In this document: positions 11,120 through 43,460 of the stretch, piece after piece | How positions within the stretch are numbered: the stretch's first letter is position 1 | Layout of the letters: every line of letters begins with the position of its first letter | Source of the DNA: an uncultured bacterium | Lineage (GTDB): Bacteria; Patescibacteriota; Patescibacteriia; CAIQCM01 | Direction: 5' to 3' | DNA: 64,000 nucleotides | Assembly: GCA_963708045.1 (NCBI GenBank) | Contig: OY970181.1 | Coordinates: 1,061,443-1,125,442 of the forward strand | The notes under the pieces: model-generated | Database searches by the model: none | What the model was told of the DNA's origin: nothing | What the model saw: the letters and a program-made list of their open reading frames with translations, nothing else | Translations under genes and position numbers: made by a program

Positions 11120-11277
11120 AGAGACTTTGAGTTCCCTCATCGCTTCGGCTCTTCGGGATGACGCCACCCTTGCCGTCATTCCGAGTCCGTGCTGTCGGTG
11201 CGTCTAGGACGAGAAATCTCGGAGCATATTAAGAGACTTTGAGTTCCCTCATCGCTTCGGCTCTTCGGGATGACGCC
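11120..11277. repeat. composite intergenic repeat element (X-Y-X modules, inverted relative to 62895-63003)
   Basis: Two direct 46-bp copies of agagactttgagttccctcatcgcttcggctcttcgggatgacgcc flank a Y-like module. The X 3' end and Y 5' end can pair (cgggatgacg / cgtcattccg). Confidence 0.55.
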
Positions 11278-11312
11278 AACGGATTAGATATTAGAAATTA
11301 GATATTAGGTAT

Positions 11313-16100: not shown

Positions 16101-16575
16101 TCAAAAATTACTAAAACCAACAGAATTACCAAAAGCGCCGACGGCTCCAGAAAAACCCGTCGCGGCAAGCGTTGAGACAAACGAAGCACCACCGCCGCCA
16201 AGCGAATTTGCCACAAAAAAACTACCCGACGCGTGGCTTGATTATGCAACTGCTGATGATGGAATACACAAAAATGATCCCGTATTTCTTGAACAATGTC
16301 TTAAAAAACATTTAGGCGATGCACTAGAACGTGTTATTATTTTTGATCGCGAAAACATAGCTATTGCCGTAATCGTTGGACCAGATAAAAAACGTGAAGC
16401 GCTTGGTATACCGATTTTTGACAGCTACAGTACTGTCGTTAAAAACTTTGGTGATAAAAAACATTATCGTTATGGAAAAATAACGCGTGTTAGTCGCGCG
16501 GCAATCTTTAAACCAGAATCAATTGACAGCGCTCTTGGGCCGGAATTGATTACATTAGGAAGTATTATTCAGTAA
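13087..16575 (+). CDS. giant (1162 aa) K/E/A/P-rich low-complexity protein with FtsK-gamma-like winged-helix domain
   Basis: Segment EAVEYVKDRAEISAKGIQKRYGIGHDRAAKIITRLEEMGLIGPQDGTNPRLVLG matches the FtsK gamma (KOPS-binding wHTH) pattern. No P-loop motor. Internal duplicated segments (ADPELFGL.../ANPEVFGL...). Globular C-terminal ~150 aa. Confidence 0.7.
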   Translation: MKQLNMETPSSEERPGVDRVELPPTERDGDEPDYDAMEARADEATAEAEAAARTVSELKVDGNAVELTDEEKARREKSTGAIEEKTGWFRRHFPKKEKVFNEGPDFKIDAPVVAGEFTATEKEFFGKTNEVSAANAEEVENIGQEEKPAEIMATSGLTGNETQVRRKLEALYEEFARRRDESSAEADERHPLSKKEAAALLSLVKKGDEKKLSKSKRATLGKMSEQEDFSAAEYNQMKTGEIPWKMNAVWQALQELNSSKLTWPNQEEGKRSTSGTIDTTTKAALGAAAIGGGAAAIHSLGKTAETGAYNEYELSVNADPTIERNLKELMTSYEQELAKTDAPKEEIMQTMRDNLAAYKNNFVEAVCKNLPPNEAAEVRRATISPIEQQKFIVTLELALGDAETSYVAESEAMIAGIKKELSEYQTMLSQLNDDVDIFNSISNDPTKRPAELMNNLAMLVEYDQSYSIGLSPAEYQDKLLEQLAAIPDEAQKTEFLEEKFKSARRAIDQLEDTVKTDIAYREESIAKQEALLAAEKTKMIRPPEGAATSGDEYDSIEIDGGGAEPTPTTSSPDAGADDEHLLEAVEYVKDRAEISAKGIQKRYGIGHDRAAKIITRLEEMGLIGPQDGTNPRLVLGKKPTSIPKPALATPDSAKPVTTIEKRTPDEIMKTAADYLLQAQAKTFNNIDSISLDDLEQKLRAVKAINNPKQIREQLKADPELFGLKKEDDIDALSDNQATNFRKRLEQFIEAQIQFKKDRLAKKTTEPKTPDVIRKTPAELLREIEAALHEKQNREMGNISPVDLRVLEARAKAIQALPDNAKQARETISANPEVFGLDPNFDLATFDDKQLGVIVDRIENYTQALIDRKNAEIIKTTPKAKPAASAPVTAPKPPDVVAAVLPPVTTEPKPPIIVSAPLTPPAAKKPVEVKIVSPEEKSAAENLKKRVKKLSDINRELDTNISDAEKKTMSDENYRLIVIAYEEYQAEKQKRPLAKLELIKRYKAEIQKLLKPTELPKAPTAPEKPVAASVETNEAPPPPSEFATKKLPDAWLDYATADDGIHKNDPVFLEQCLKKHLGDALERVIIFDRENIAIAVIVGPDKKREALGIPIFDSYSTVVKNFGDKKHYRYGKITRVSRAAIFKPESIDSALGPELITLGSIIQ

Positions 16576-19944: not shown

Positions 19945-20030
19945 TTTTTTAACTTTTAAGTGTTAGCTTTTAACTTTTAGCCGCTAAAAAGCAATGCTAA
20001 AAGTTAAAAGTTAAAAGTTAAAAGTTTTTT
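19945..20030. repeat. (TTAAAAG)n inverted-repeat hairpin element, locus A
   Basis: T6-cttttaacttttagc..loop..gctaaaagttaaaagttaaaagttaaaag-T6. 3' arm ends 2 nt before the ATG of the SIMPL gene on the opposite strand and overlaps the last codons of pgk. Confidence 0.5.
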
Positions 20031-22365: not shown

Positions 22366-23583
22366 TCACAAAACCGACCGGTATATTTCCATTATCTTTT
22401 GATAGTGGTCAGCCGGGTCGTAAAGCTTAATCGCGCGCTCGCGGCCAAGATACCCCATCCGGCGAATTAGCGGCTCGTTTTTGGCGAGATCGCGAATGGC
22501 GTCGGCGAGCGCCACGGCATCACCGGGCGGCGTGAGGATGCCGGTTTCGCCGTTTACCACGTTCTCGGGAAGCGCACCAATTGCGCTTGCAATAACCGGC
22601 TTTCCCATTGCCGCCGCTTCAATCGCCGTCAGACCAAAAGTTTCGTACGAAAGCGATGGCACGACAACAAAACGCGAAGCACTAACTGCTGCAAGCACGT
22701 CGTGATGACTCATTGACCCGACCAATTCCACGTTCTTAAGCCCCGCAGTTTTAATATATTCTTTAAGACGTTTTTCCATCGGCCCCGTGCCAACCACCTT
22801 AAGCCGAACTTCAGGTACGCGTTCCATTGCCGCAAAAAGCGTGCCAATTCCTTTTTCTTCAGAAAGACCGCCGACATAAATTATTTCCGCGCCCGGCTCA
22901 AAATTTGGTTCATAAAATTGCGCGTCTATAAAATGCGGGACAACGGAAATTTTTCCACTCCCCCTCCCCCACTCGGCAAATTTCTTTTTTACAAATTCAG
23001 ACGGCGCAATAAGTTTGGTAACCAGCCGCTCGTCCAAACCAGCCATATAATGATAACGATATGCAGCCGCGTCCAGTGCCGAAGCAACAAACGAATTTTT
23101 TACGCAGCGGTGCAAAATCGCCGCCGAATAATGACGAGGTTTTACTCGCTCGCAAGGCGCGCCGTGATCAAAAAGTCCGTAAGACGGCGAAAGATACGCA
23201 TAATCGTGAAGCGTTTGCACAATTGGAATCTTCGCCTCGTTAAGCGCCACGAGCACCGAAGGCGAAAGTTGGTGATAAATATTATGAAGATGAGCAACGT
23301 CCGGCTTATAGACGCGAATAAGATCAGTAAGTTTGCGTTTGGCCTCAAACGAATAAAAAAGCCGCCCCGAGGCCTTGATCGCATTCCAGCCGATTCGCGG
23401 ATGCTCCAATTCCACGCGTGAAACAAAAAACCGATCCGATTCGGCGCGAACATTTTGCGGATCTTTCATCGCAAACGGAACAACGTAGTGGCCGTTCTTT
23501 TCCAACAAATCTTCCAACGCGAACATATATCGCTCGGCACCGCGTTTTTGAAAATAAAATTTATTTATGGAAAGGATCTTCAC
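22366..23583 (-). CDS. GT4-family glycosyltransferase
   Basis: C-terminal EKGIGTLFAAM...VPSLSYETFGLTAIEAAAMGKPVIAS...GETGIL is the glycosyl transferase group 1 signature. Confidence 0.8.
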   Translation of the reverse strand: MKILSINKFYFQKRGAERYMFALEDLLEKNGHYVVPFAMKDPQNVRAESDRFFVSRVELEHPRIGWNAIKASGRLFYSFEAKRKLTDLIRVYKPDVAHLHNIYHQLSPSVLVALNEAKIPIVQTLHDYAYLSPSYGLFDHGAPCERVKPRHYSAAILHRCVKNSFVASALDAAAYRYHYMAGLDERLVTKLIAPSEFVKKKFAEWGRGSGKISVVPHFIDAQFYEPNFEPGAEIIYVGGLSEEKGIGTLFAAMERVPEVRLKVVGTGPMEKRLKEYIKTAGLKNVELVGSMSHHDVLAAVSASRFVVVPSLSYETFGLTAIEAAAMGKPVIASAIGALPENVVNGETGILTPPGDAVALADAIRDLAKNEPLIRRMGYLGRERAIKLYDPADHYQKIMEIYRSVL

Positions 23584-25121
23584 ACGGAAATTTCTTCGCG
23601 TTTAGCGATAACAAAAATTAACGCGGCAAAAAAGAAAAGATAAAGCGCCAGCGTTCGCACCTCTAGGTACGATCCAAGAAACGCCTGGAACATCACGGCT
23701 GAAAACGCGCCAATGTAGCCCAAAGCCAAACCGCGATTAAACGAATCGTCCGAATGTTTGTAAAGCCGCCATGCGGTTCTGACCATAAACGACATAAGGA
23801 GCACGTATACGATAATACCCATTGTGCCGAGTTCACCCCAAAGCGACATCCAGTTTGAATCTATTTGCCCGTCGGTTCCATAAACGCCGAAAGGAAGGCC
23901 GAGCCGGTCATAAGCAGTTGTATTGTGAAGCGCCGCCGCCGCGCCGCCGCCAAACATTCCCGGACCAAGACCAAAAAATGGCGCAGCGGGAACAACAACG
24001 CGCGGCGTTTGAATGAGCCAATAGACCCGGCCAAGACCGTAATATTCGCCTTGCAAACGTTCGGGCGAAAACGCTTCAAAAAATCTTTCGGTAATTGTTT
24101 GTTGCGGCACATCGGTAAGCAGACGAAGAACAACACGATCATACAAATAAAATGAAACAACAATTGCCGCAAAAATTCCAAGCACAGCCGCGACGCGGCG
24201 ATCACGTTTAATAAAGAGGCCAATGACGACAAAGCCGAGCAGAAAACCAAACCACGAAGCGCGCGAATAAGTTAAAACAAGCGCCGAAATTCCGACCAAA
24301 AAGAAAACCCAAAGCCAGCGGTGCTCTTCCCGTTTTTTAAATTCATAGGCAAAACCCAAACCAATAAGCAGAAAAAAACATAAAAACGTTCCCAGCTGAT
24401 CGTAACGACCCATTGTTGCAAAAATACGTTCGCCAGGCGCCCAAAATTGTTCCACGCCGGCGGTTAATTGAATACTTTCATAAAAACGGCTGCCCGAAGG
24501 AAGAAGAAAAGTATCAATCGCGCCGTGAAGTGCCGCCTGAAGTACACCAAGGATTGATTCAAAAAAAGCAACACCAAACAAGATGTAAACCGTTTCGCGA
24601 ATTCGTTTCTTGGGCGGCGCCAAGTAACTAACCGCAAAGAACAAAATCATATAGCGAATAATCTGCCTTACCCCGAGCGCGGCCACGCCCAAAGGAACAA
24701 GATTAACAATAACCGACGCGGCAAGCGTGACAAGCAAAAGAACAAACGGCAAGTTTAACGGCGTATACGGCACGCTGCCATTTTCAATAACGACGTGAAC
24801 AATAACGAGCACAGCAAGAATATAAACCGCGACTTCGGGGAAATACCGCGCAAAAACATAAAGCTCGTTTGGAACAAACTTTAGAAGAAACGGCTCAAAG
24901 ACAGTCCAGATAGCAATGGCCACCGCGAGAAAATACGGACGGCAAACAGCAAGCGCAATAACGCCGATTGTAAGTATGGCCGCAAGAACCGTATATGGCG
25001 AAACAAATCCAACCGAAGCGCAAAGAACAACAGCACAACCAATAACCGCCCAAAAAATACGGCGTTCAAACGGCGTGCGCAAATTGATTGCTCCGGCTAA
25101 TTTTTCTGATAAATTAGGCAT
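23580..25121 (-). CDS. O-antigen ligase/polymerase-like polytopic membrane protein
   Basis: 513 aa, >10 TM helices, Wzy_C-like loop region. Start overlaps the stop of the GT4 gene by 4 nt. Confidence 0.55.
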   Translation of the reverse strand: MPNLSEKLAGAINLRTPFERRIFWAVIGCAVVLCASVGFVSPYTVLAAILTIGVIALAVCRPYFLAVAIAIWTVFEPFLLKFVPNELYVFARYFPEVAVYILAVLVIVHVVIENGSVPYTPLNLPFVLLLVTLAASVIVNLVPLGVAALGVRQIIRYMILFFAVSYLAPPKKRIRETVYILFGVAFFESILGVLQAALHGAIDTFLLPSGSRFYESIQLTAGVEQFWAPGERIFATMGRYDQLGTFLCFFLLIGLGFAYEFKKREEHRWLWVFFLVGISALVLTYSRASWFGFLLGFVVIGLFIKRDRRVAAVLGIFAAIVVSFYLYDRVVLRLLTDVPQQTITERFFEAFSPERLQGEYYGLGRVYWLIQTPRVVVPAAPFFGLGPGMFGGGAAAALHNTTAYDRLGLPFGVYGTDGQIDSNWMSLWGELGTMGIIVYVLLMSFMVRTAWRLYKHSDDSFNRGLALGYIGAFSAVMFQAFLGSYLEVRTLALYLFFFAALIFVIAKREEISV

Positions 25122-25285: not shown

Positions 25286-27568
25286 CTACGGACTAGCAGT
25301 CGCGTCAATGATGCAACCCCACTTTGGGATTTCCCGACAAACCTCACCCGACGCCGTCCGACACATTCCACAACCCGCGCGAACACAACCGTTAATCGTC
25401 CACGACCGCAGGCCAAAATAAATTCTCTGGCCCGCCGCCGTGATCACGTATGGCGTAAACTTGGTCAACTGAAGACCATCGGCCACAAGCGGCGTGTTGT
25501 TATTGGTTAGCGTGAGATTATCACTCCAAACAATTGGCGACACAACCGTTGTCTTGTGGTAACACGACGACACCCAGCACGAATCCAAATCAGCACCAAT
25601 CCCCGCTCCCACGTATGCCTCCGATACTGGCGGCGCTCCAGCAAGCCCATCAGCGAGCAAGCCTGTCACCACGATCGCCACCCTAATGTGCGGACCTTCG
25701 CGCGTGCAGGTAATTGTTCCCTGTGAAGGTGGCGGCTCACCCCATTCCGGCGAAAAAATAATCCCACCATCGGTAACTTCCGCATCGGCGAAAATCGCGA
25801 CGTCGCTTGTGGCAACGGCATCAAAATTCGCATCTGCCACACTCACATCAACACCGGCATCAGTTGACGAACCGCTACTACCACCGATTCCACCAGTACC
25901 ACCAGCGTCCAACGCCGAACCACCACTTCCACCAGAACTACTTGCTCCGCCAACAGAACCAGCACCACCGCTTGTTCCCCCGGAAACACCACCGGTTCCG
26001 CTTGTTCCGCCACTTGATGTACTTCCGCCGGTTGCCGAACTTCCACCAACACCACCAAGGCCACCGTCAGAATTTACAACAACAGCTTCACACCCATCGG
26101 CCGGATTATTGTTTGCGTCCGTCCAACCTGGCACACAGTGAAAGACAGCGCACTTCCCTAGAACGCAAGCGTCAACCGCCGAATGGCGGCTAAACCCCAG
26201 GTTTGGGAATGAACAATCATTTCCACACGCCCCGCAGTTCTTGGTGTCGTTTTCCAAATCCCATTCCAAGTCATCCACAACACCGTTGCAATCGTTATCG
26301 TGATGATCACACACCCTAACGCCATCTGTCGTCGACAAACAAGCGTACTCGCAACCGTCTTTGGGACGGTTGTTCGCATTCCAATAAAGCGGTTCACATT
26401 TCCCTATCTCACAAACCCCAGCAACACAGAGCGCGACGGCGTGATCAAAATCACACACCTTTCCACACTCTCCGCAATTCTTTGGATCATTTTGCTTGTT
26501 CCAAAGATCATCCACAATACCATTGCAATCATCATCCTTGCCGTTGCAAGTTTCAATTGTTGGGAGAACAACTTTGTTGACGACATCTTTGTCACACTCG
26601 GCCGGCCACACACCTTCCTTGCAGGTCATAATCCCAACACGACACTCGCCCAAGGTCAGAAGTTTCCCAGCCATATCGGTTGCGCCGCACGACCGTTGGT
26701 TACCATCGTGACATTCGCAACCATCATCAACGACACCACTGCAGTTGTTGTCAAGGTTGTCGTCACAACGCTCTTCGCTTGCTTTATTATGCGACCCATC
26801 TGGCGCAACCGAACAAATGACGCCGTTTTTTTCTTCGTTGCATTCATACACCCCGCCAACACAAACTCCAAGTCCATTGCAGGCGATCCCGACTGGGAAT
26901 CCTTCATCAGCAAACCCATTGCAGTTGTTGTCTTTGCCGTCGCAAATTTCTTTGGACGGTTTAGTGTCTCCGGCGCAGTCGGTCCACAAACCCTTAACGC
27001 ACACCTTTGTCCCTTCGTGACACGCGCCGATTTTTGATCCGCAAGCTATCTGTTCGCCTGTATGGAAAACGATGCCGTTTTCGTAACAAGGCGCGTCTTC
27101 GGGCGGAAGAACTTGAGTAACATTGATGATAATGACGCCCGGCGCGTCAGCCGCACCAGCATCCGGCGAAAAAGCAGCAGTACACTTCGTGAAACCTTTT
27201 CCGTCAAGCTCGCAATACTGTTTGCCCGACTCCTGATTTGGCTTATCGCCCGGGCGATAGCAGGCGCGGAACGAACCCGGAACGCAGTCAGACGGGTTTG
27301 CACTCGTCGCTGTTTCCGTTCCTGTTCCAATTATCGCAACCGTGTTGGTAACAACATTAGTTACCGTGCTCGCCGTCGCGATCGCGGAACTCGTTCCCGA
27401 TCCCGTCGCGATTGTTGACGACGTTGACGTTGTCGCCACTCCGGTTTCCGTGGTTGTGCAAATGCTTGTTCCCGAGGACGAGTTTGTTCCAGCTTTGCTT
27501 GTCGTTTTGACTTGTCCTCCACAGCCAATTACGAACACCAAAATTCCAAACCAGTACCTTTGCTTCAT
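25286..27568 (-). CDS. Cys-rich lipoprotein with MopE-like (CxxCxGxDxDCDGxxDE) repeats
   Basis: Lipobox LVFVIGC. Repeats ETCNGKDDDCNGIVDDLW, ERCDDNLDNNCSGVVDDGCEC, EICDGKDNNCNGFADEGF, RVCDHHDNDCNGVVDDLEW. GGS/T-rich linker. Confidence 0.65.
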   Translation of the reverse strand: MKQRYWFGILVFVIGCGGQVKTTSKAGTNSSSGTSICTTTETGVATTSTSSTIATGSGTSSAIATASTVTNVVTNTVAIIGTGTETATSANPSDCVPGSFRACYRPGDKPNQESGKQYCELDGKGFTKCTAAFSPDAGAADAPGVIIINVTQVLPPEDAPCYENGIVFHTGEQIACGSKIGACHEGTKVCVKGLWTDCAGDTKPSKEICDGKDNNCNGFADEGFPVGIACNGLGVCVGGVYECNEEKNGVICSVAPDGSHNKASEERCDDNLDNNCSGVVDDGCECHDGNQRSCGATDMAGKLLTLGECRVGIMTCKEGVWPAECDKDVVNKVVLPTIETCNGKDDDCNGIVDDLWNKQNDPKNCGECGKVCDFDHAVALCVAGVCEIGKCEPLYWNANNRPKDGCEYACLSTTDGVRVCDHHDNDCNGVVDDLEWDLENDTKNCGACGNDCSFPNLGFSRHSAVDACVLGKCAVFHCVPGWTDANNNPADGCEAVVVNSDGGLGGVGGSSATGGSTSSGGTSGTGGVSGGTSGGAGSVGGASSSGGSGGSALDAGGTGGIGGSSGSSTDAGVDVSVADANFDAVATSDVAIFADAEVTDGGIIFSPEWGEPPPSQGTITCTREGPHIRVAIVVTGLLADGLAGAPPVSEAYVGAGIGADLDSCWVSSCYHKTTVVSPIVWSDNLTLTNNNTPLVADGLQLTKFTPYVITAAGQRIYFGLRSWTINGCVRAGCGMCRTASGEVCREIPKWGCIIDATASP

Positions 27569-27794
27569 TGGGCTATCCGATCCTTTCTTTTCGTTACGTT
27601 TGTATCTTTACACATTGCGCCAGGCCAAACGCAATATGATTGTCAAAAAACATATTCTGACCTGATGCACATTCTCCTATTCGCACATCAGACCGCAATA
27701 TTCAGCTAAATATATGGATAGCAATAACGTCAAAATTTACCGCTAAAATGCGTTTGTGTCAAATAACAAAAAATAGCCCGTAGGCTATAAGGCT

Positions 27795-27837
27795 ATAAAT
27801 AAAGAGGCGCGGCAAAGGAGTGTTCCTTTGCCGCGCT
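27795..27837 (-). terminator. intrinsic terminator
   Basis: gcgcggcaaagg-agtgtt-cctttgccgcgc 12-bp stem, T-rich on minus strand after the 27858 gene stop. Confidence 0.45.
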
Positions 27838-27857
27838 CTCGAGAAACGATCGCTAGT

Positions 27858-29654
27858 CTATGGCTGGCGGACAAACCCACCGGTCATTGACTTGCAAATC
27901 CCAGTGACCGCCAACCCCTGAACACCTTCCATTGAATTCTGCAACCAGCGGTCAGCAGTTGCAGGACCGACACCGACCAAGTTGAACACTTGGCCGATGT
28001 TCTGTATCGGCATCACCGGAATTTCGTAGCGAGCCAGGGCTCCCCACGTTGCCGTTGCACAGTAGCTACGACTTCCCCACGTTCCCAGCGCGTCACCCTC
28101 AAAACACACCTGCGTCGGTGTACCGAAAGCGCTGTTTATCCCCTGCCCCATCATATTGTCCGTGGTAAGACCTAGACCTGCGACGCCGTAAAGCGTGATG
28201 TAGACGCTGGATCCAACCAACTGACAATCCAGAGCTGCGACTGCGCCAGCCGGAACCGGTGAAGGTGCCGGGCGACCATCTGTCGTCGCGTCGTGTGACA
28301 CGATTGTGTCTGGACTTCCAGCGTCGGGAGTTGTTCCCGTACCAGTGGAAGTTGCCGTCGCGGTCAAAGTGACCGTTACGGCATCAGGCGTGCCGGCGTC
28401 CACGGTGGTCGCTGTACCCGTGCCAGTTCCCGTTCCGGTTCCGGTACTAGTCGGAGTTGACGTTGTCGTCGTCCCCGTACTTGTCGCCGTGACCGTTGCC
28501 GTCGCTGCTGTACCTGTTCCAGTTCCAGTCGCCGTGGACGTTCCCGATGGTTCACAAACCACCTTAAGAACCCCACCCACCAAACGACACACAAACCGTC
28601 CGTTATAGACTCCAGATGATGGCGAGCATTCCTCACCTTTCCTAACCAAATCCCCATCAAACTGACAGAGTGAGATTCCGGCGTCCACAGTGGTCGCCGT
28701 GCCTGTTCCGGTTCCGGTTGAAGTCGGAGTTGACGTTGTTGACGTCGTCCCCGTGCTCGTTGCCGTTACCGTTGCCGTCGCCGTGATACCTGTTCCCGTT
28801 CCTGTTCCTGTCGTCGTGTTTGTTGGAACGCTTGATGGTTCACATACCACCTTGAGGGTTCCACCAATCTGACGACACACATACCGACCGCTATCAACTC
28901 CCGGCGTTGGCGAACAAGTTTCACTCCTCCGAACCAAATCCCCATCCGCCAAACAGGTCGGAACAACAACTTCAATCCCCGTACCGGTGGAGGTTGCCGT
29001 AGCCGTGACGACTATTGCCGTTGCGATCGCGGTTCCCGTCGTGTTTACACCCGACGGTTCGCACTTCATCTGAAGACCAGACGAAGTCGTTCGGCAAACA
29101 AACCTTCCATTGTCCACTCCCGGCGTTGGCGAGCAGGAGACACCCCTACGAACCAACTCCCCCTCGGCCGTGCAGGGATTTTCAACAACCACGTTGATGA
29201 TGACCGTACTGTCTACGTTCGCTGCACTGTCGGCAGTCTGAACGATTCCGCCGTCAGTAGGACACCCTTTGCACTCACCCCAGACATTCTCCCTGGTGCA
29301 AGTCTTGACCCCAAGTCCACTACCATCACAGTCACACTGCAACGTAGTGTTCGTGGAGCACTGCAGCACGATGATCTGCGCGTCCAACTTGGGCGCGATG
29401 ATCACGGTGTCCGGCGTTGGCGCGGGTGCGTCAACGGTGACGATTGGCGCCGCATCAACGGGCGCATCAGGAACGGTGACGACGATTGGAGCTGTGTCAG
29501 CGGACTGAGTGCCCGTATCAACAGCGACCTTCACGTCACTGCGGCCGGCGTCGGCCTTGGTTGCGGGTTTATCACCCGCGATTTCAGCGCCGCAGCCGAT
29601 GGTCAGGAACAACGAAACGATTCCGAAACACGATACAAGACGATTGGACTTCAT
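27858..29654 (-). CDS. Thr/Gly-rich lipoprotein with three tandem ~45-aa Cys domains
   Basis: Revised start MKSNRLVSCFGIVSLFLTIGC (AGGAGG 5 nt upstream). Three copies of C..GDLVRR...CSPTPGVD.GR.VCR...G.LKVVCEPS. Long (TG)n/TGTGTATAT tracts. Confidence 0.65.
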   Translation of the reverse strand: MKSNRLVSCFGIVSLFLTIGCGAEIAGDKPATKADAGRSDVKVAVDTGTQSADTAPIVVTVPDAPVDAAPIVTVDAPAPTPDTVIIAPKLDAQIIVLQCSTNTTLQCDCDGSGLGVKTCTRENVWGECKGCPTDGGIVQTADSAANVDSTVIINVVVENPCTAEGELVRRGVSCSPTPGVDNGRFVCRTTSSGLQMKCEPSGVNTTGTAIATAIVVTATATSTGTGIEVVVPTCLADGDLVRRSETCSPTPGVDSGRYVCRQIGGTLKVVCEPSSVPTNTTTGTGTGTGITATATVTATSTGTTSTTSTPTSTGTGTGTATTVDAGISLCQFDGDLVRKGEECSPSSGVYNGRFVCRLVGGVLKVVCEPSGTSTATGTGTGTAATATVTATSTGTTTTSTPTSTGTGTGTGTGTATTVDAGTPDAVTVTLTATATSTGTGTTPDAGSPDTIVSHDATTDGRPAPSPVPAGAVAALDCQLVGSSVYITLYGVAGLGLTTDNMMGQGINSAFGTPTQVCFEGDALGTWGSRSYCATATWGALARYEIPVMPIQNIGQVFNLVGVGPATADRWLQNSMEGVQGLAVTGICKSMTGGFVRQP

Positions 29655-29857
29655 GACGATCCTCCTTGAAATGGTTGGGGTTGGCATACCGCCCCTTCTA
29701 TACAGATTGTGATCCACGGTATGCCAACCGCGGGAAATACGAGGCATCTTTTTATGCCCTTGGATAGAGTAAAACCCCCTCCAAACGCACAAAATTAGCT
29801 ATTTTTATAACTCACTAATCTATCACAAAATGACGGATTTGTCAACACCCCCCCGAA

Positions 29858-29889
29858 CTAGGGTTTAGGGGCTAGGGTTTAGGGGCTAG
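29858..29889. repeat. TTTAGGG-like tandem repeat (ctagggtttagggg x2)
   Basis: Direct tandem. A related tagggtctagggtctagggtttag lies at 1628-1651. Confidence 0.4.
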
Positions 29890-29996
29890 TTTTGAATTAA
29901 ATCTAGATATTTTTCTTATTCAAATTCAGTTATAAAAGAAAAGAGGCCTTCATACATTTCTGTATAAAGGCCCCCGCGATTCAAGATCCACTTCTC

Positions 29997-31250
29997 CTAC
30001 AACGGATTGAGGGAGAAAAAGAGCTTGAGGGTTTCGTCGTAGCCGCAGTTTCCACTGCGGACGAGCGCGGAGTTGTTACTCCAGCGCTCCTTGCCGTCCA
30101 CTGTCCTAACCCCAACGACAGTGATTCGGTTCTTTGCCGCCGGCATTGGCAGTCCTTGCCAAGTGTACGTCGTCCCGGCGATGTACGGTTTGCAGAGTGT
30201 CCGCAAGCCTTCCCACCCACCAAGCGGATCACCCACCAGGCACACCCGCGAAATGTCGCCGGTCTGATACAGATTTCCGAGAACGTCGCCGCTCACGGTA
30301 ACTGTACCAACATTCGCACTTGTCACCGTACAACTCACGTAAGCACTTCCACCGTTTGATGGCGGAAGTCCACCCGAGCATACGGTCCAACTCGGCACGC
30401 CATTATCCAGAACACACGTCTGCGTGCAACCAACATTGCCATTCGTACACTGACACGCAACTGTCCAATTGATAGGCGTCGTGCCGCACGTATTACAGCT
30501 GTTCGTGCAACTGCAACCACAGCTTGTGCTTGTTGCCGCCGTCGTGCCGCCAGTTGACGTTGAGTTGCCACCAGCGCCGCCGGTTGCCGGAGGATTTGAC
30601 ACCGCCGACCAAGTAAAGGGCGGAGTGCTCTGGTTCTGCACACAGGTCTGCGTGCAACGATTGGTGCCGTCCGAGCAGGTGACGTTTGAAAGTACCCTGC
30701 CCAAATGCGCCGCGTCACACACGAATGGATCAATGACTGATGTCATAGAACCACCCGTCGCCGTCGTGCCGCCAGTTGCCGTCGTTCCACCCGTGGCCGT
30801 ACTGCCACCCTTTGGCGGACAGATACAGTCACTTACCGGACCACCCACGCCCTCACACTTTTGCACACCACTCTTTTGACCGACATCTCCGGCGCAGAAG
30901 CACTGAATGGTTACGCCTTTTGCAGAACAATCGGTCAAGCCGCCGACCGGTGTGGTCGTCGTGGCCGTCGTGCCGCCGGTTGGTGTCGTGCCGCCCGCTG
31001 CCGTGGTCGTGGCGACCGATGAGCTTCCGCCTGTGGCCGGTGTCGTGGTGCTGGTCGCGGTCGTATTTCCGCCGGTCGGTGTTGAGGTTGAACTAGCCGT
31101 TGCCGATGAACCTCCTCCCGATCCAGCCGTTCCAGCATCAGCCGTCACAACTTTCTTGTTGACCGCTTCCTCGGCGCCGCAACCGGTGCCGACAATGACG
31201 GGGCCGCTGCCCAAGAGAACTGCGAGAACCAAATACCGATACGTGTTCAT
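29997..31250 (-). CDS. Thr/Gly/Cys-rich lipoprotein
   Basis: Revised start MNTYRYLVLAVLLGSGPVIVGTGC. T/G/A-rich linker, many Cys. C-terminal domain weakly similar to the C-terminus of the 27858 protein. Confidence 0.6.
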   Translation of the reverse strand: MNTYRYLVLAVLLGSGPVIVGTGCGAEEAVNKKVVTADAGTAGSGGGSSATASSTSTPTGGNTTATSTTTPATGGSSSVATTTAAGGTTPTGGTTATTTTPVGGLTDCSAKGVTIQCFCAGDVGQKSGVQKCEGVGGPVSDCICPPKGGSTATGGTTATGGTTATGGSMTSVIDPFVCDAAHLGRVLSNVTCSDGTNRCTQTCVQNQSTPPFTWSAVSNPPATGGAGGNSTSTGGTTAATSTSCGCSCTNSCNTCGTTPINWTVACQCTNGNVGCTQTCVLDNGVPSWTVCSGGLPPSNGGSAYVSCTVTSANVGTVTVSGDVLGNLYQTGDISRVCLVGDPLGGWEGLRTLCKPYIAGTTYTWQGLPMPAAKNRITVVGVRTVDGKERWSNNSALVRSGNCGYDETLKLFFSLNPL

Positions 31251-31472
31251 GATGGTACCCTCTTCTTTCTGGACTGTGTCTAGAATCATACCGCCACTAT
31301 GACGGTTTCTTGTCTAGCTGTTTGGTTGTTGGTTGACTGTTTTAGTTTGGATTTTTACAAGGTACGTATGCGCTGGCATTTTTTAATCCCAGAGCGTATG
31401 TATCTTGAAAATTGAGGCGAGGGATGGATAAGTGCGAACCACCTATCCATCCCTCCCTGACGACGTTGGAAT

Positions 31473-32903
31473 CTAGAAGATTCCGCGACCGTCTGCCCGT
31501 GCTCCCTTTGGAGCGGGCTTTTCGTCTTCGTATGGGTCTATATCTTCTTCATCATCTACCGATTCAGCAACAGCCGCTGACGTTGTCTTGACGTTGTTGT
31601 TGTTGTTGAAGAAGCTCGCGCCGATGAAGCCCATGGCTCCGTAAGCGCTTTCAGTGCTAGACCCGCCACTCTTTAGGTGACCTCCCACAAACACTTGCAC
31701 GCCGGGGATGAGCACTACTTTTCCAACACGGATTCGGAAGTCCACACCCGCCACTCCGCCGATTTCCGCGTGAAGGAACTTGAGTCCCTCCGTAATTCCG
31801 ATCGGGATGTACGCCACTCCGAACCGAAGTCCAGCATAGTCGTTCATCCAGTAGCGCAAGCCGCCTTCAACGAGTCCGGAAAAGTACTTCTTTTGTCCGT
31901 TCCCGTTCTCGTCAATGACGAGCTCACCGTTTGCGTCGGTCTTCCTCACGCCAGGAACGCCGATCCCCACTTGTGTGTAGAGATCAAAGTTCTGGGTGAG
32001 TTCAAATGCCCCACCGACTGCCAGAACTGCACCGGAATACTTGAAGCTATTAGACATCATCCCCAAGAACTTGAGCTCCAAGGTGAAATGCGCAACAACT
32101 CCACTCCGTCCGTCCCGACCATCTCTACCATCCTTTCCAACCACTGCAGCAACCGGCTTCACGACGACCGTGGGCTTTGGCACACATTGCCATTTGCCAT
32201 CTATCTGTCCCTCCATCATTCCCGCAACACCGGAACAGTCGCAGCGATCAGCTGGCAGATTTTGCCCTCTGGTGTTTTCGCAGACTGTCTTCGGAACAAT
32301 TGCCGGATCCCAACCCATCTTGGCCAAAACCGAAGGTTGATCAACGCCGCCAACAGTCACGGTTACGGTCACCGTACCCTCGCCACCCTTCTTGTCAAAG
32401 GCAGTGAGCTTTATTGCCTTCTGAGCAACGCCATCAGTGATGAAGTTGCTAAGAATCGCGGTGTCACGAATGGTTTTGCCTTCCGTCAAGCACCCGACAC
32501 AAGACTCGTGAACCATAATGTCCGGATACTTCTTCGCGCCCTTGCCAAGTTTCTGCTTGGCAATGCCGGTCACTCTGAGCTTGAGCTCAACGGTTTTCTC
32601 GTTCGCCACGTTTGACGTAAACTGCGGATCCAGTTGGATCATGATTTCCTCGGGCGGCGGGACAACGACTGGCGCTGCCTTTGGCGCGCGAGGTGCTCGG
32701 GGCTTCACGGCGCGACAAGTGTTCCCGTCTTCGCTGGCTTTAAACCCAGCCGGACATTGACAGTGCGGGCAACCGTTTGGTTGCCACTCCGCGCCGGTTG
32801 CCGATTCCCGACACCTTTGCGAATTGCTCTTTTCGGCACGAGCTGAAGAAACCATCCCCAAAATCACGAACAAAATCACGGACGATAGCGTTGTCTTCCT
32901 CAT
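31473..32903 (-). CDS. secreted Cys-rich protein with collagen-like GKDGRDGRDGRSG segment and beta-rich C-terminal domain
   Basis: Signal peptide MRKTTLSSVILFVILGMVSSARA. C-terminal ~200 aa show an alternating hydrophobic pattern consistent with beta strands. Confidence 0.55.
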   Translation of the reverse strand: MRKTTLSSVILFVILGMVSSARAEKSNSQRCRESATGAEWQPNGCPHCQCPAGFKASEDGNTCRAVKPRAPRAPKAAPVVVPPPEEIMIQLDPQFTSNVANEKTVELKLRVTGIAKQKLGKGAKKYPDIMVHESCVGCLTEGKTIRDTAILSNFITDGVAQKAIKLTAFDKKGGEGTVTVTVTVGGVDQPSVLAKMGWDPAIVPKTVCENTRGQNLPADRCDCSGVAGMMEGQIDGKWQCVPKPTVVVKPVAAVVGKDGRDGRDGRSGVVAHFTLELKFLGMMSNSFKYSGAVLAVGGAFELTQNFDLYTQVGIGVPGVRKTDANGELVIDENGNGQKKYFSGLVEGGLRYWMNDYAGLRFGVAYIPIGITEGLKFLHAEIGGVAGVDFRIRVGKVVLIPGVQVFVGGHLKSGGSSTESAYGAMGFIGASFFNNNNNVKTTSAAVAESVDDEEDIDPYEDEKPAPKGARADGRGIF

Positions 32904-33144
32904 CTTGGTACCCTCTCCTTCTTCTTTTCTCTTTTTGAAGTTGCTCAGCCGACGACGGCTGATTTTTTATTCAGCCGTTTCAGCTGCGAAGTGGCGCGAC
33001 AGGCGACACAGAGAAAAGGAGGGATTTCTAAGATCGTTTGTCACGCCGCTTCAAAGCTGAATTGATAATTTAATTTTCAAAGATTGGATCCGATCGGAAG
33101 AAAGGCAAGATGCACCTTTCTTCCGATCAGTTTTGCGTGCCAAA

Positions 33145-33774
33145 CTACTTTGGCTTGTAACACTTCCCGCAGGTGGGAAGATCGCCGGTGCCGCTACAGT
33201 CAACAATGCATTCGTCTTCGCACTCTTTAGACCCCGTACAACGGACCCCCGTCCAAACATTATCTTTCTTCGAGGCCGCGTCTTCGGTGTTCACCGTACA
33301 AGCTCCGCAGTTAAAAGCTGGTTCTTCGGCCAACCCTGATGTCTGACGATCTGAGTCGTCGGATTCGTCTTCTCCTTGCTCTTGAGTTGCTTGCTTCAGA
33401 GCAAAGTCTAATCTGCTTATTGCCTCTTCCAGCTTGGCAATATCAGCCTTGATTCCTTTCTTCCCAAGCAGGGCGTCCAGAATGTCGTCCTGTTTTTGAG
33501 CAGTCCTCAATCCAACTATCCCCACCGCGGCCAACGTCGTCGCTCCAATGAATAAGCCGACCATCAACAGGCCAAAAAAGTGGCGGACTGCGCTTTCTCC
33601 GACAACTTCTTCGTGGCCTTGTTGCGTCGCTGACACATTTTGTTGATATCTGGCCTTTCGCGCCACGAGCCACTCTTTGAACAGTCGCTTCAGAACGGTT
33701 GTCCAAAGAATGAGAAACATTGTGAGCAACACCAATCCGACCAAAATTTCTTTCCAGTACTTCAACATGAACAT
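33145..33774 (-). CDS. membrane-anchored protein with coiled-coil and Cys-rich C-terminus
   Basis: Two TM helices. C-terminus FNCGACTVNTED...CTGSKECEDECIVDCSGTGDLPTCGKCYKPK. Confidence 0.5.
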   Translation of the reverse strand: MFMLKYWKEILVGLVLLTMFLILWTTVLKRLFKEWLVARKARYQQNVSATQQGHEEVVGESAVRHFFGLLMVGLFIGATTLAAVGIVGLRTAQKQDDILDALLGKKGIKADIAKLEEAISRLDFALKQATQEQGEDESDDSDRQTSGLAEEPAFNCGACTVNTEDAASKKDNVWTGVRCTGSKECEDECIVDCSGTGDLPTCGKCYKPK

Positions 33775-34082: not shown

Positions 34083-34730
34083 TTATACAAAACTCGGTGG
34101 ATGTTCAACCAAATATTTGCGCGACTTGTCGGTAAGGAGAACGTAGGCAATGCTCAAAAATATACCAACGACAAAACCGATAAAGCCATTCGCAAGTACG
34201 TTGGGCTTAACCGGAAAACGCGAGACCAGCGGCGCGTCAACAAGTTTGATTTGCAAACCCGAGCCGCCAACGTAATTACTTCCGTAAGTGGTCATTACGT
34301 AGGCAATCGCATTGGCAATTTCCGTGGCCTGATCTTTGTCAGTGTGATAAACGGTGATGTTGAGCAAGCCCGAGCCTTGTTCCACGCGCACCGAAACCAT
34401 CTGATTCCACTTTTTGCGACGGCGCGCATCGTCGGTTGGAAAGTATGACGAGTCAATATTATATTTTGACGAGAGCACGCGATTATAAAAATCGGTCGTG
34501 TAAACAATCTGCGCCAAATTTCCACCAACGCTTGCCGAAGCACGAATGGCAGTGTAAGGATCGTAATTAAGCGCCGCCGGCTGAATGATAAGCAGGCGAA
34601 TAGAAGAAGAATACTGGAGCGGCTCAACAAACGATATCCCGCAAGCCAAAACCAAAAGCACGGCGGAAATAACGGTGATCAATTTCCACTTTTTTAAAAT
34701 TATTTTTCCGTAATGCGGGTTGGCCGACAT
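34083..34730 (-). CDS. Wzz-like polysaccharide chain-length determinant (bitopic)
   Basis: N- and C-terminal TM helices flank a periplasmic domain. Resembles short Wzz/CapA N-terminal proteins. Confidence 0.5.
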   Translation of the reverse strand: MSANPHYGKIILKKWKLITVISAVLLVLACGISFVEPLQYSSSIRLLIIQPAALNYDPYTAIRASASVGGNLAQIVYTTDFYNRVLSSKYNIDSSYFPTDDARRRKKWNQMVSVRVEQGSGLLNITVYHTDKDQATEIANAIAYVMTTYGSNYVGGSGLQIKLVDAPLVSRFPVKPNVLANGFIGFVVGIFLSIAYVLLTDKSRKYLVEHPPSFV

Positions 34731-34731
34731 A

Positions 34732-35811
34732 TTATTTTAGCGTTACCGATAATTTGATTTGTTTGCCCGCGCGCATTACCGAGAGTTCAACTTTGGCGCC
34801 CGAAGCATATTCCGCGACCACTTCGGAAAGCGGCGCGTCTTTAGTTATTCTATCACGTTCAACCGCCAGAATCACGTCGCCATCACGAAGGCCGCCAAGC
34901 TCAGCCGCACTTCCAACATTAACGGCTTTGATTTTACCAAGGCCAATAAGTAATGCACCCTCCGACGGAAAACCAGCGGACGGCAAGGCCTTAACATCAG
35001 CAACCGAAACATAGTGAACGCCAAGCGTCGGCCTGATTATTTTTTTGCCCAGAAAAACATCTTTCATCGCTTCGGTAAAATACGCCGCCGGTACGGCGCT
35101 GTTTTCGCTAGTGGCAACGGCGACAATTTTTCCCGAAGCGTCAATAACCGGCGCCCCCAACCCAAGGCCGACGCCCGCGAGAATCAGCCGCCGTGAAAAC
35201 TTTTCCGAAGATTCAATTAGGTCAGCACGCGTCGTTACTGGTGTTTCGCGAACGGCAAAAACCGAAAAAACATTTAACCCGCCGCTTTTTGGCGCGTAAA
35301 CGTTTTCTCCAGGGAGCAACGTTGTATCATCGCCAAACGGCGCAACATTTAAGTGGTCCGATTCAACGCGAACAAAAGCAAGACCGGTCGCCTCGTCTTT
35401 AATCGCCTTTCCCGCCGGCACGGTTATGGAAACTCCGTCAGCAAAAACGGCAACCAACTGATCGCGTCCCAAAAGAACATCCGCACTGCTCGCGATCCAA
35501 CCGTCGGAAGTAAGAACGACGCCTTCGCCAACAATGTCAGTCGGAAGAAAAGCACCATCAATTCTGCTTCCAGAATGATAACGGTAAAAAACTACCGAAC
35601 CGCGAACCGCCGAAGAAACCGCGTCCATATTTGCGACCGAACCAGCTCGGGAAACAGCTGGCGGGCGCATTTCGTTGGTCAAAATAATTTCCGAAACGTT
35701 GGTCGCTGACCTAATCGCCAAGGCCGCGCCAAGCGCACCCGAAGCCAACGAAAGTCCGATCACAACCAAAAGATTTATAATTTTTGTCCAAATTTTTTTA
35801 TCCATATTCAT
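34732..35811 (-). CDS. trypsin-like (HtrA-family) peptidase homologue with C-terminal PDZ, possibly catalytically inactive
   Basis: N-terminal TM. Protease-fold region where the expected GxSGGP is GLGLGAPV (no Ser). Clear PDZ (GALLIGL...GLRDGDVILAV). Confidence 0.6.
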   Translation of the reverse strand: MNMDKKIWTKIINLLVVIGLSLASGALGAALAIRSATNVSEIILTNEMRPPAVSRAGSVANMDAVSSAVRGSVVFYRYHSGSRIDGAFLPTDIVGEGVVLTSDGWIASSADVLLGRDQLVAVFADGVSITVPAGKAIKDEATGLAFVRVESDHLNVAPFGDDTTLLPGENVYAPKSGGLNVFSVFAVRETPVTTRADLIESSEKFSRRLILAGVGLGLGAPVIDASGKIVAVATSENSAVPAAYFTEAMKDVFLGKKIIRPTLGVHYVSVADVKALPSAGFPSEGALLIGLGKIKAVNVGSAAELGGLRDGDVILAVERDRITKDAPLSEVVAEYASGAKVELSVMRAGKQIKLSVTLK

Positions 35812-35885
35812 TAAGCTGTTAACTGTTAACTTTTAACTGTTAGGAAAAACCTAAAAGTTAAAAGTTAAAAGTTAAAAGTTTTTTA
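35812..35885. repeat. (TTAAAAG)n inverted-repeat hairpin element, locus B
   Basis: ttaactgttaacttttaactgttag..ctaaaagttaaaagttaaaagttaaaag-T6, same family as 19945-20030. Confidence 0.5.
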
Positions 35886-40372: not shown

Positions 40373-40401
40373 AAACTACCACCCCTCCTCAAAAAAGTCA
40401 A

Positions 40402-40437
40402 CCTCCCATCTTTCCACGATCGCGGAAAGATGGGAGG
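40402..40437. repeat. 36-bp palindrome (bidirectional terminator-like), copy 1
   Basis: cctcccatctttccacgatcgcggaaagatgggagg flanked by A6 and T6. A near-identical perfect copy lies at 43391-43426. Confidence 0.5.
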
Positions 40438-40576
40438 GGTAATATTTTTTACAAAACAAACAGCCGTGCCCACGAATGGACACGGCGTCGAGCAGGATTC
40501 TCTCCACGATTCCCGTCGGCAAAATTCAAACGACGAGTATTCCGCAAATGAGCTACCTTTCTTTCCTTTAAGGGCG

Positions 40577-41032: not shown

Positions 41033-41123
41033 GTTTTTTTGCTTGTCAATCCATCATTAGCACGATCTCAAAACAAACAGCCGTGCCCACGAATGGACAC
41101 GGCGCCGAGAATTTTTCCTCCTT

Positions 41124-42254: not shown

Positions 42255-43055
42255 TTAGTCGTTTAAAGACAAATATTTATTTTTCTCTTCGGCGTATATT
42301 TTTTCAATGCGCGAGGCGCTGATAGCCGTCCCATAAACTCGGAGATTATCAATATAACCAATGAGCGGAATTCCGTCCCCTGCACAAGATGATCCAATGT
42401 TTGAAACTAAATCGTTTAAATTTAAATTGAAACTGTTGGTAAGCGTCAAATGTCCGTTAAGATAATAGCTAGCCTTAGTTCCTGAACCGCTCCTTGCAAT
42501 AGCCAAATGATTCCATTTGCCATATTGAATATCGCCGATCGCATCTTCCGGACCGGCGTTATAAACGCGCAAATGATTCCCTGGTGTATTCAGATAAACT
42601 GCACTGCTATAACAGCCGGGCGAGCGTTTGCCAATTAGTGTGTTAGAGGCGCCGCTCAATTTATTGAACCAAAAAGAAACCGTACCATCGCCAACGCCGG
42701 AAATGGCGGTTGTTACATACCCCGTACCATTAAGGTTAAGAGCGCAGCCTTGTCCCGATGGCGTATAGTTTTTATTAGTCGTCGCACAAATCCAAGTTGT
42801 GCCGCCGTACAAGGTTGCGACGTTTCCATTACCACTTGCGTCCATGGCCGAAGTTCCGCTACCATCTTCAAAATCAAAAACAGCAACCGCTTCAGATCCA
42901 GCAAGATGCTGGACGCTTGCTTCAAACTGCAGACCAGAAGCAACGGCGGCTTTTTCACGCAAGCCAGAAGTTGCGACAACAGCAATGGTTGAGAGGAGGC
43001 CAATGATAGCGATTGTCACAAGAACTTCTATCAAGGTAAAAGCACGGCGTTTCAT
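42255..43055 (-). CDS. type IV pilin-like protein with LamG/concanavalin-A-like lectin domain
   Basis: MKRRAFTLIEVLVTIAIIGLLSTIAVVA prepilin motif, then a beta-rich ~200-aa domain (TVSFWFN...NHLAIARSG...YLNG) typical of LamG-like folds. Confidence 0.75.
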   Translation of the reverse strand: MKRRAFTLIEVLVTIAIIGLLSTIAVVATSGLREKAAVASGLQFEASVQHLAGSEAVAVFDFEDGSGTSAMDASGNGNVATLYGGTTWICATTNKNYTPSGQGCALNLNGTGYVTTAISGVGDGTVSFWFNKLSGASNTLIGKRSPGCYSSAVYLNTPGNHLRVYNAGPEDAIGDIQYGKWNHLAIARSGSGTKASYYLNGHLTLTNSFNLNLNDLVSNIGSSCAGDGIPLIGYIDNLRVYGTAISASRIEKIYAEEKNKYLSLND

Positions 43056-43338: not shown

Positions 43339-43390
43339 ATTTATTCAGTATAACAAATATTCACCAACAATGTTTTCGCATTTTTTAAAA

Positions 43391-43426
43391 CCTCCCATCT
43401 TTCCGCGATCGCGGAAAGATGGGAGG
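43391..43426. repeat. 36-bp perfect palindrome, copy 2
   Basis: cctcccatctttccgcgatcgcggaaagatgggagg flanked by T6AAAA and T-rich sequence. Confidence 0.5.
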
Positions 43427-43460
43427 GGTGTTGTTTTTTAAATTTTTATTAAAATAAAAT

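Follow-up and report, generated by a model that had tools for sequence, protein, structure and literature searches.

To our knowledge, nearly everything that is known about the attachment of Patescibacteria to their hosts concerns type IV pili and a small number of adhesins of the oral Saccharibacteria, and we know of no host-recognition molecules from the Parcubacteria-type radiation. How episymbionts recognize and bind their hosts has been described as largely unknown (PMC11623550). In the Candidate Phyla Radiation (CPR), the genomes of Peribacteria specify large extracellular proteins that are rich in Cys, differ between strains, and are weakly similar to Cys-rich repeats of Myxococcus, and a role in attachment has been proposed for them (PMC4736985). 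In this report, we describe a cluster of five genes, denoted here as A to E, in a 64,000-nucleotide stretch of contig OY970181.1 from an uncultured bacterium of the Patescibacteria (this whole stretch is called the window). The five genes follow one another on the minus strand between positions 25286 and 33774, as had been noted in a preliminary description made from the letters of the window, and all of them encode extracytoplasmic proteins. The cluster was found at the same address in related genomes, between genes that are well conserved, and its own products are strongly divergent. We assign a probability of roughly 55% to the reading that this is an ancestral, chromosomally fixed, and rapidly diversifying cell-envelope locus of a Patescibacteria (CPR) bacterium, whose five disulfide-rich extracytoplasmic proteins most likely form an outward attachment or recognition layer.

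Conservation of the Locus in Related Genomes

The closest relatives of protein A (P0002 and P0003) and of protein D (P0244) are encoded on JGI contigs L002, L003, and L008. When L008 is taken together with L002/L003, the gene order is HtrA, Wzz-like, E′, D′, C′ ... C′, B′, A′, Wzy-like, GT4 (glycosyltransferase family 4), phosphoglycerate kinase (PGK), SIMPL, and enolase. In L005, a more distant relative (65% GC, Wzy 64% identical), the order Wzz, E′, D′, C′, B′, A′, Wzy, GT4, PGK, SIMPL, and enolase was found on one contig. The Wzy-like and GT4 genes adjoin A in L002, L003, and L005, and the Wzz-like and HtrA genes adjoin E in L005 and L008. On the contig that encodes P0139, three unannotated genes (354, 490, and 571 amino acids) are located directly upstream of Wzy, GT4, and PGK. 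A scan of the GTDB species representatives with Wzy returned a single 38% match, from an unrelated metagenome-assembled genome, and no close genome was found among these representatives. In L009, L010, and L011, where enolase is 84–87% identical, the block of PGK, GT4, Wzy, and the island does not stand beside enolase, and no further copies of the locus were found. The region upstream of enolase is occupied there by a restriction-modification system, a Fic protein, a Y1 transposase, and other genes. This arrangement indicates that the enolase–PGK junction is a rearrangement point in the lineage.

The flanking proteins of the window and of its close relatives are 93% (Wzz, L008 copy), 84–86% (Wzy), 86–88% (GT4), 85–86% (PGK), 79% (SIMPL), and 68% (HtrA) identical. 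The corresponding values for the island proteins are 49–61% for A, 31–42% for B (inflated and noisy from low-complexity linkers), 39–47% for D, and about 29% for E. The island proteins diverge two- to three-fold faster than their neighbors, and they do so by point change, by gain and loss of repeat modules, by changes in linker length, and by replacement of terminal domains. The A-type proteins range from 695 to 1139 amino acids, with a variable number of MopE/CPL1 repeats, and in the B-type proteins there are two or three four-Cys modules of unrelated appearance. The window copy of C ends in a B-type domain, whereas its orthologues in L002, L003, and L005 have a different terminal domain, marked by the motif DCWAQYGG, to which nothing in the window corresponds. 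The earlier suggestion that the island is rapidly evolving is thus strongly supported by the contrast between 68–93% identity in the flanks and about 29–61% in the island, as well as by the changes in module number and the domain replacement. The coordinates of the genes and of their parts are collected in Table 1.

Table 1. Positions of the genes, protein segments, and spacer elements, given in nucleotides of the window and, where applicable, in residues of the encoded protein
Feature	Position (nt)	Residues (aa)	Strand	Description
GT4 glycosyltransferase	22366-23583		-	Pfam; downstream of island
Wzy_C / O-antigen-ligase-like membrane protein	23580-25121		-	Pfam; downstream neighbor of A
Gene A	25286-27568	760	-	lipoprotein
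A, C-terminal domain	25289-25732	613-760	-	predicted beta-sandwich
A, linker		501-612	-	Gly/Ser
A, Cys-rich region		161-500	-
A, MopE-type core 1	26903-26944	209-222	-
A, MopE-type core 2	26723-26767	268-282	-
A, MopE-type core 3	26507-26548	341-354	-
A, MopE-type core 4	26270-26311	420-433	-
A, lipobox VIGC	27521-27568		-	followed by Thr/Ser/Gly linker
B-A spacer, promoter-like site	27762-27734		-	perfect TTGACA -35; upstream of A
B-A spacer, hairpin	27836-27807		-	terminator-like; 13-bp stem with 9 GC pairs, then T run; just after B stop
Gene B	27858-29654	598	-	lipoprotein; open reading frame (ORF) open up to 29792; exact 598-aa product recorded as P0246
B, C-terminal domain	27861-28259	466-598	-
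B, 4-Cys module 1	29052-29174	161-201	-	41 aa; modules parted by Thr/Gly linkers
B, 4-Cys module 2	28833-28955	234-274	-	41 aa
B, 4-Cys module 3	28545-28667	330-370	-	41 aa
B, 6-Cys module		99-131	-
B, lipobox TIGC		Cys21	-
C-B spacer, promoter-like site	29845-29817		-	TTGACA-17-TAGATT, extended TG; upstream of B
C-B spacer, 14-nt tandem	29858-29889			CTAGGGTTTAGGGG x2.3; between terminator-like hairpin and B promoter-like site
C-B spacer, hairpin	29975-29942		-	terminator-like; 15-bp stem, T run; just after C stop
Gene C	29997-31250	417	-	lipoprotein; ORF to 31289; 417-aa product called at corresponding Logan contig position
C, C-terminal domain	30000-30353	300-417	-	B-type
C, Cys cluster		244-291	-
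C, 4-Cys segment		178-203	-
C, 6-Cys segment		108-144	-
C, lipobox GTGC		Cys24	-	Thr/Gly linkers in the protein
Gene D	31473-32903	476	-	secreted protein
D, barrel candidate	31602-32099	269-434	-	followed by acidic tail
D, G-X-Y triplets		256-268	-	four triplets
D, EGF-like module		208-240	-
D, Ig-like sandwich	32304-32657	83-200	-
D, EGF-like Cys motif		31-63	-
D, signal peptide		1-23	-	signal peptidase I (SPase-I) type; cleavage between SSARA and EK
Gene E	33145-33774	209	-	membrane protein
E, 8-Cys tail	33148-33315	154-209	-	Cys map; charged or coiled segment also present in E
E, hydrophobic helices		9-28, 66-89	-	hydropathy scan
CpsC/MPA1-type (Wzz-like) polysaccharide chain-length determinant	34083-34730		-	upstream neighbor of E
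HtrA-like serine protease with PDZ domain	34732-35811		-	upstream of Wzz-like gene
Diversity-generating retroelement (DGR)	6323-8865		-
DGR, reverse transcriptase (RT)	6323-7324		-	PF00078, E=3e-18
DGR, template repeat (TR)	~7736-7873		-
DGR, variable repeat (VR)	~8210-8347		-
DGR, target ORF	8206-8865		-

Architecture of the Five Proteins

Lipidation was assessed with the logic of PROSITE PS51257, which calls for [LVI..][ASTVI..][GAS]C at residue 15–35 after a positively charged n-region and a hydrophobic h-region. This rule is passed by A (FVIGC, Cys16), B (LTIGC, Cys21), and C (VGTGC, Cys24), and also by their orthologues in L002, L003, and L005, and it fails for D and E. All five products had initially been described as secreted or lipid-anchored proteins with lipoboxes; that description holds for A, B, and C as predicted lipoproteins, in line with the three lipoboxes that had been listed, whereas D has an SPase-I signal and E has two transmembrane helices. 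The Cys content is 6.8% in A, 4.0% in B, 6.0% in C, 2.3% in D, and 3.8% in E, relative to 0–1.3% for most of the other genes in the window. After removal of the anchor Cys, the number of Cys residues in the mature protein is even in nearly all cases (B 22, C 24, and E 8; orthologues 50, 38, 110, 28, 24, 22, and 8), as expected for disulfide pairing outside of the cell.

Proteins A, B, and C follow a common plan that consists of a lipid anchor, a long Thr/Gly/Ser spacer, small Cys-knot modules, more spacer, and a C-terminal beta-rich domain. Thr and Gly together account for 23–33% of the residues in these three proteins, and the Thr/Gly/Ser linkers make up a large share of each. The Cys-knot modules comprise a shared 6-Cys module, repeats of the MopE/CPL1 type in A, and 4-Cys repeats in B and C. 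The 6-Cys module follows the first linker in the A, B, and C families alike, and it indicates that the three are paralogous at their N-terminal ends. At the DNA level they are linked by families of 40–80-nt linker repeats (D1, D3, D4, and D7). A common origin of all three tips was considered and dropped, because the profile–profile comparison of the A C-terminal domain with the B/C-type domain gave a probability of 11%. The NCBIfam scan of A to E returned nothing useful.

The MopE-like character of A had been noted beforehand, with at least four motifs, and a Pfam scan does find four stretches above threshold for PF11617 (Cu-binding_MopE; E=1.3e-14, 54.6 bits versus a cut-off of 27), with no match in B, C, D, or E. 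The motifs (CxGxDNDCxGxxDD) alternate with CPL1-like Cys modules in the 340-residue Cys-rich region, and a degenerate N-terminal Cys module is located between this region and the Thr/Ser/Gly spacer. The family label denotes a short Cys/Asp motif and, as read from the sequence, is no proof of copper binding. Remote homologues of A were found in the MopE-related repeat proteins of Myxococcota, Bradymonadia, and Planctomycetota, of which many carry a fused FGE-sulfatase-type domain, and a sequence comparison of A with all PDB chains, MopE* included, gave no match. The structure model predicts a beta-sandwich of generic fold for the 148-residue C-terminal domain, which was found in only 6 of the 247 sequences that were fetched.

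The three tandem C..GDLVRR domains that had been described in protein B were recovered as three 41-residue modules with the consensus C..G[DE]LVR[RK]...CSP..GV..GR[FY]VCR....L..[VM].CEPS. They are also visible in the DNA, as 113-nt repeats and as a tandem period of 288 nt. Two of the proteins had been said to share related C-terminal domains, and these proved to be B and C. A profile built from the C-termini of B orthologues, using the other loci only, was run against 423 six-frame ORF segments and selected only C (E=1.8e-6) and B (E=8e-6), with the next best segment at E=0.47; the relationship is real but distant. Neither B nor C belongs to a Pfam or NCBIfam family, and the B/C C-terminal profile has no PDB match. 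The motif VC.VGD...W in this terminal domain raised the thought of a CBM20/48-like starch-binding module; no family match was found, and this identity is not claimed.

Protein D combines an immunoglobulin (Ig)-like sandwich, for which the model has a predicted local distance difference test score (pLDDT) of 70–80, with two segments of epidermal growth factor (EGF)-like character, a short collagen-like run, and a C-terminal region of 165 residues. This last region contains eight long amphipathic strands and was modeled at low confidence (pLDDT about 40–60) as an eight-stranded barrel that resembles OmpA and NspA. Its last strand ends in aromatic residues and is found at the very C-terminus in some members of the family. 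Against PF01389 (OmpA_membrane), D scores 22.5–22.9 bits relative to a cut-off of 21, but over 75 of the 180 profile positions; the homologue P0242 reaches 18.1 bits, which is under the cut-off. Matches to PF13505 were obtained for 4 of 11 members of the D family, all of them under the cut-off, and the weak matches of these 11 members are almost all to outer-membrane barrel families. No outer-membrane protein was found when the barrel profile of the D family was compared with the PDB. The family is small, with only 12 members among 1.84 billion representatives. We regard the barrel in D as likely but unproven. The Patescibacteria have been proposed to lack an outer membrane (PMC12102498). If the barrel-like domain of D is real, it has a bearing on the question of a second membrane that some CPR lineage might possess or make use of.

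Protein E has no cleavable signal, and its C-terminal 8-Cys tail is predicted to face outside. The positional orthologues in L005 and L008 have the same architecture at 23–29% identity. No significant family match was obtained for E in Pfam or NCBIfam.

Two further lipoproteins are encoded outside of the island, at 51851-52714 (VIGC, Cys-rich at 8%, with a Thr/Gly linker) and 52938-54071 (TIGC, beta-propeller-like). The 5′ ends and upstream regions of these two genes are near-duplicates (52698-52842 versus 54065-54210, 88–92% identical), and both GC and GC at third codon positions (GC3) are raised at 51851-54210.

Proposed Function of the Locus

In the proposed attachment layer, A, B, and C would be tethered by lipid in the outer leaflet of a single membrane, and their Thr/Gly/Ser spacers would carry them through the wall. 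The spacers could be O-glycosylated by the machinery encoded next door (CpsC/Wzz, Wzy_C-like, and GT4). Modules stabilized by disulfides, and probably by Ca2+, would form rigid stalks, with the distal beta-sandwich or beta-rich domains binding to ligands on a host cell or another surface, and D and E would add further anchored, Cys-rich elements. The fast turnover of these proteins would reflect diversifying pressure from host specificity, phages, or antagonists, and the low-complexity linker DNA common to A, B, and C may serve as a recombination substrate for the shuffling of modules. The initial proposal of a surface-protein or adhesin cluster is in keeping with every line of evidence as far as the surface cluster is concerned; the adhesion itself we infer.

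Several points weigh against this assignment. A binding function for A to E is not readable from their sequences, and glycosylation of the linkers may be suggested purely from the gene neighborhood. The C-terminal domain of A is 67–82% identical among close relatives, a degree of conservation that would suit either a structural or a binding role. The signal-peptide and lipidation calls for all five proteins come from pattern rules only, and no Lgt, LspA, Dsb, or VKOR system was seen among the ORFs of the 64-kb window, from a genome of 1.19 Mb. Contigs L002, L003, and L008 are from a single metagenome, with perhaps two or three populations behind them, the taxon was placed in this analysis with one marker protein (enolase) and its context, and the identities of B carry the noise mentioned above.

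The strongest alternative, which we consider unlikely although it retains a real share of the probability, is that the locus specifies a structural coat. Mucin-like, possibly glycosylated, disulfide-cross-linked lipoproteins would then combine with the product of the CpsC/Wzz–Wzy–GT4 genes in a protective layer or glycocalyx with no specific ligand, and its proteins would evolve fast to evade phages or predators for which the coat serves as a receptor. Such a coat would account for the conservation of the five genes between the polysaccharide chain-length, polymerase/ligase-like, and GT4 genes, beside an HtrA-like quality-control protease, and it would suit both the extent of the Thr/Gly/Ser linkers and the fairly conserved, generic sandwich at the tip of A. 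However, B and C diverge most in their terminal domains, which have been swapped between paralogues; recognition modules show such a pattern more typically than scaffolds do. In addition, no S-layer, SLH, or cell-wall-binding domain was found in A to E with Pfam or NCBIfam. The two explanations also overlap, since a coat can mediate adhesion as well.

A more radical possibility, which we hold to be doubtful, is suggested by the barrel candidate. On this view, D and the dozen proteins related to it would truly be membrane beta-barrels, in a phylum that is presumed to have one membrane only. The lineage would then have an unrecognized outer lipid layer, or the barrel would be delivered into the envelope of a host cell as an anchor or conduit held via the Ig-like, EGF-like, and short collagen-like stalk, with A, B, C, and E as the rest of a dedicated, fast-evolving organelle for attachment or feeding.

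Metal handling in the manner of the methanotroph MopE, in which the motifs of A, and the Cys-rich modules in general, would trap copper or some other metal on the surface of the cell, is very improbable. It is prompted by the 54.6-bit match of A to PF11617, a "putative metal-binding motif", and by a gene for an Nramp metal transporter (Pfam) 4 kb upstream. The motif, however, is present in A only. Elsewhere the PF11617 repeat occurs by the dozen in MopE-related proteins of Myxococcota, Planctomycetota, and Bradymonadia, where it looks structural and is probably stabilized by Ca2+ and disulfides. The copper site of MopE* lies outside of the PF11617 motif and consists of two histidines and a kynurenine, and A matches no solved structure, that of MopE* included. 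With even numbers of Cys residues, disulfides are more likely than free thiolates.

Base Composition and the Question of Foreign Origin

The GC content across 25–33 kb is 0.50–0.56, relative to 0.44–0.48 in most of the window, and the preliminary description was correct that it exceeds that of the flanking DNA. To separate the contribution of the encoded proteins, the GC content of each gene was predicted from its amino-acid composition and the codon usage of the other 40 genes in the window. The predicted and observed values are 0.526 and 0.530 for A, 0.560 and 0.576 for B, 0.559 and 0.591 for C, 0.502 and 0.546 for D, and 0.476 and 0.504 for E. Amino-acid composition therefore covers almost the whole of the excess in A and the larger part of that in B and C. 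The excess in these three genes resides mainly at the second codon position (0.54–0.65 versus 0.41), through codons for Thr, Gly, Ala, and Cys. The deviation in GC is real, and its reason is mainly protein composition rather than foreign origin. A residual synonymous shift was observed, with 47–61% of the two-fold codons ending in G or C in the island versus 25–36% in housekeeping genes. The same upward shift in GC3 relative to the flanks is found in the orthologous clusters of L002, L003, and L008 (about 55% GC) and of L005 (65% GC), and also in several other putative surface genes of the window. Since it recurs in relatives at other genome GC contents, the shift is a property of this class of genes and not a sign of recent foreign origin. 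It may be caused by expression-linked codon choice or by biased gene conversion at a recombination-prone locus.

At the borders of the island there is no tRNA gene (the only one in the window is at 62735-62813) and no large pair of bracketing repeats, and the immediate neighbors are polysaccharide and protease genes, with no integrase. The possibility of horizontal acquisition, raised earlier for this region, is thus not supported, because the same genes, order, and neighbors are found in L002, L003, L005, and L008, the borders bear no marks of mobility, and composition explains most of the GC excess. The insertion of a foreign, GC-richer block into the chromosome as a recently acquired genomic island would account for the raised GC, the G/C-ending codons, and the occurrence of the closest remote homologues of A in high-GC Myxococcota and Planctomycetota, but it is highly improbable in view of the bare borders, the compositional prediction, the same GC3 shift at about 55% and 65% GC, and an arrangement that is retained in relatives down to 64% Wzy identity. 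Allelic replacement through recombination with related lineages at the fixed locus could still have occurred. For genome scans in general, a GC bump over Thr/Gly/Cys-rich genes can come mainly from protein composition and need not mean foreign DNA.

Spacers, Neighboring Genes, and Other Features of the Window

The spacers suggest that A and B may be separate transcription units, each with a promoter-like site that follows the terminator-like hairpin of the upstream gene. The promoter-like sites were identified by a consensus scan only, and their total in the region is not above the shuffled expectation. An AT-rich repeat of the type TTAAC(T/A)GTTAAC occurs at 5645-5684, 19948-19987, 35811-35850, and 63600-63639, directly upstream of minus-strand starts (pseudopilin, SIMPL, and HtrA), and could represent a common 5′ leader or a promoter element. 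Hairpin cassettes that are rich in GC and 92–98% identical are duplicated in the intergenic spacers at 40400-40492, 41069-41109, and 43389-43440; these look like shared terminators.

The genes of the window include chromosomal enolase, PGK, iPGM, Fpg, YceG, and HrpA, and the window proteins were located on an NCBI contig of 1,188,223 bp; identical proteins are also recorded as P0001 and P0241. The relatives of its enolase are 81–87% identical, and every named match at 66–70% belongs to the Patescibacteria (Candidatus Buchananbacteria, Uhrbacteria, and the Parcubacteria group). The presence of type IV pseudopilins and an active-looking DGR in the window fits an ultra-small bacterium of the episymbiont type. 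Further surface proteins are encoded at 4084-5685, 42255-43055, and 59281-60726; two of them resemble type IV pseudopilins (N_methyl with CarboxypepD_reg or LamG), and another is secreted and contains TSP3 (Ca-binding) repeats of the bacterial kind. This TSP3-repeat protein has an N-terminal repeat in common with the ORF at 55645-57018.

In the DGR, which is complete, all 11 mismatches of the 138-nt repeat pair fall on adenines of the RT-proximal copy (ten A to G and one A to T). The variable copy makes up the 3′ end of an ORF of 219 residues that has no family match. In L009 and L011 the pseudopilin gene directly follows Fpg, without the DGR and MerR cassette (about 5.8–9.8 kb), which looks like an insertion in this genome. 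The island was considered as a target of the DGR and rejected, since the only VR copy is at 8210-8347 and none is present at 25–34 kb. Phase variation by simple repeats was likewise set aside: only imperfect periods of 18 and 288 nt were found in the island, with no simple-sequence switches or invertible promoters.

An intergenic element of roughly 50–118 nt, which could be a small RNA or of the REP-like or MITE-like type, is present in several copies, at 11118-11285 and 62887-63009 and also at 10197-10261, with exact 47-nt direct copies at 11120-11166 and 11232-11278. Inverted copies (88–98% complementary) are found 51 kb away, beside the tRNA-Asp gene at 62735-62813. The plus-strand ORF at 13087-16575 encodes 1162 residues, of which an FtsK gamma domain is the sole recognizable part; its positional counterparts in relatives have 1247, 1033, and 655 residues.

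Comparison with Known Systems

Protein A resembles the MopE-related proteins of family PF11617, named after MopE of Methylococcus capsulatus, in that it carries several PF11617 motifs, and many of those proteins also start with a lipoprotein signal. They contain 10–20 motifs, whereas the shorter A contains 4 and lacks domains of the FGE-sulfatase, BNR, or sialidase type. Unlike them, A ends in a predicted beta-sandwich that few of the fetched sequences share and is encoded in a Patescibacteria genome, within a conserved five-gene cluster.

Lipid- or membrane-anchored, repeat-built, and rapidly diversifying families of surface proteins are also found in host-dependent organisms, such as the variable lipoproteins of wall-less or reduced parasites (Vlp and Vsp of Mycoplasma) and the Cys-rich VSPs of Giardia. 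The similarity to the island is by analogy only, with no homology found, and the variation of the island was seen between lineages and is not shown within a clone.

The small eight-stranded outer-membrane barrels (the OmpA N-domain, NspA, OmpW, OmpX/Ail, and TtoA) are the systems with which D can be compared. The candidate in D differs in that Ig-like and EGF-like modules precede it and, in the window protein, an acidic tail of 40 residues comes after it. It also belongs to a phylum thought to be without an outer membrane (PMC12102498).

The island answers to the description of the Cys-rich extracellular proteins of the CPR, a class without a formal definition (PMC4736985). As in the Peribacteria, the proteins are from a CPR bacterium, have signal peptides and a high Cys content, and show weak similarity to Myxococcus repeats, and variation in such proteins is a main genotypic difference between Peribacteria strains (PMC4736985). 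The island proteins, too, vary between related genomes. The Peribacteria proteins have a mean length of about 1655 residues and are not described as lipoproteins or as an ordered cluster (PMC4736985), whereas the island proteins have 209–760 residues and three of them are predicted lipoproteins. The polysaccharide genes on both flanks and the protein with the barrel-like domain also set the island apart from the Peribacteria case.

The fixed address and the conserved bounding genes can be used as anchors for the polymerase chain reaction or for metagenomic searches. Together with the small, modular, fast-changing exported proteins, they make this locus a concrete candidate for a recognition layer, as well as a natural marker with which differences between strains and in host range can be followed in metagenomes. 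The Cys-rich surface proteins of the CPR and the MopE-repeat proteins are known kinds; the locus is notable for its conserved five-gene organization, its sharp divergence boundary, and its candidate for an OmpA-like barrel.

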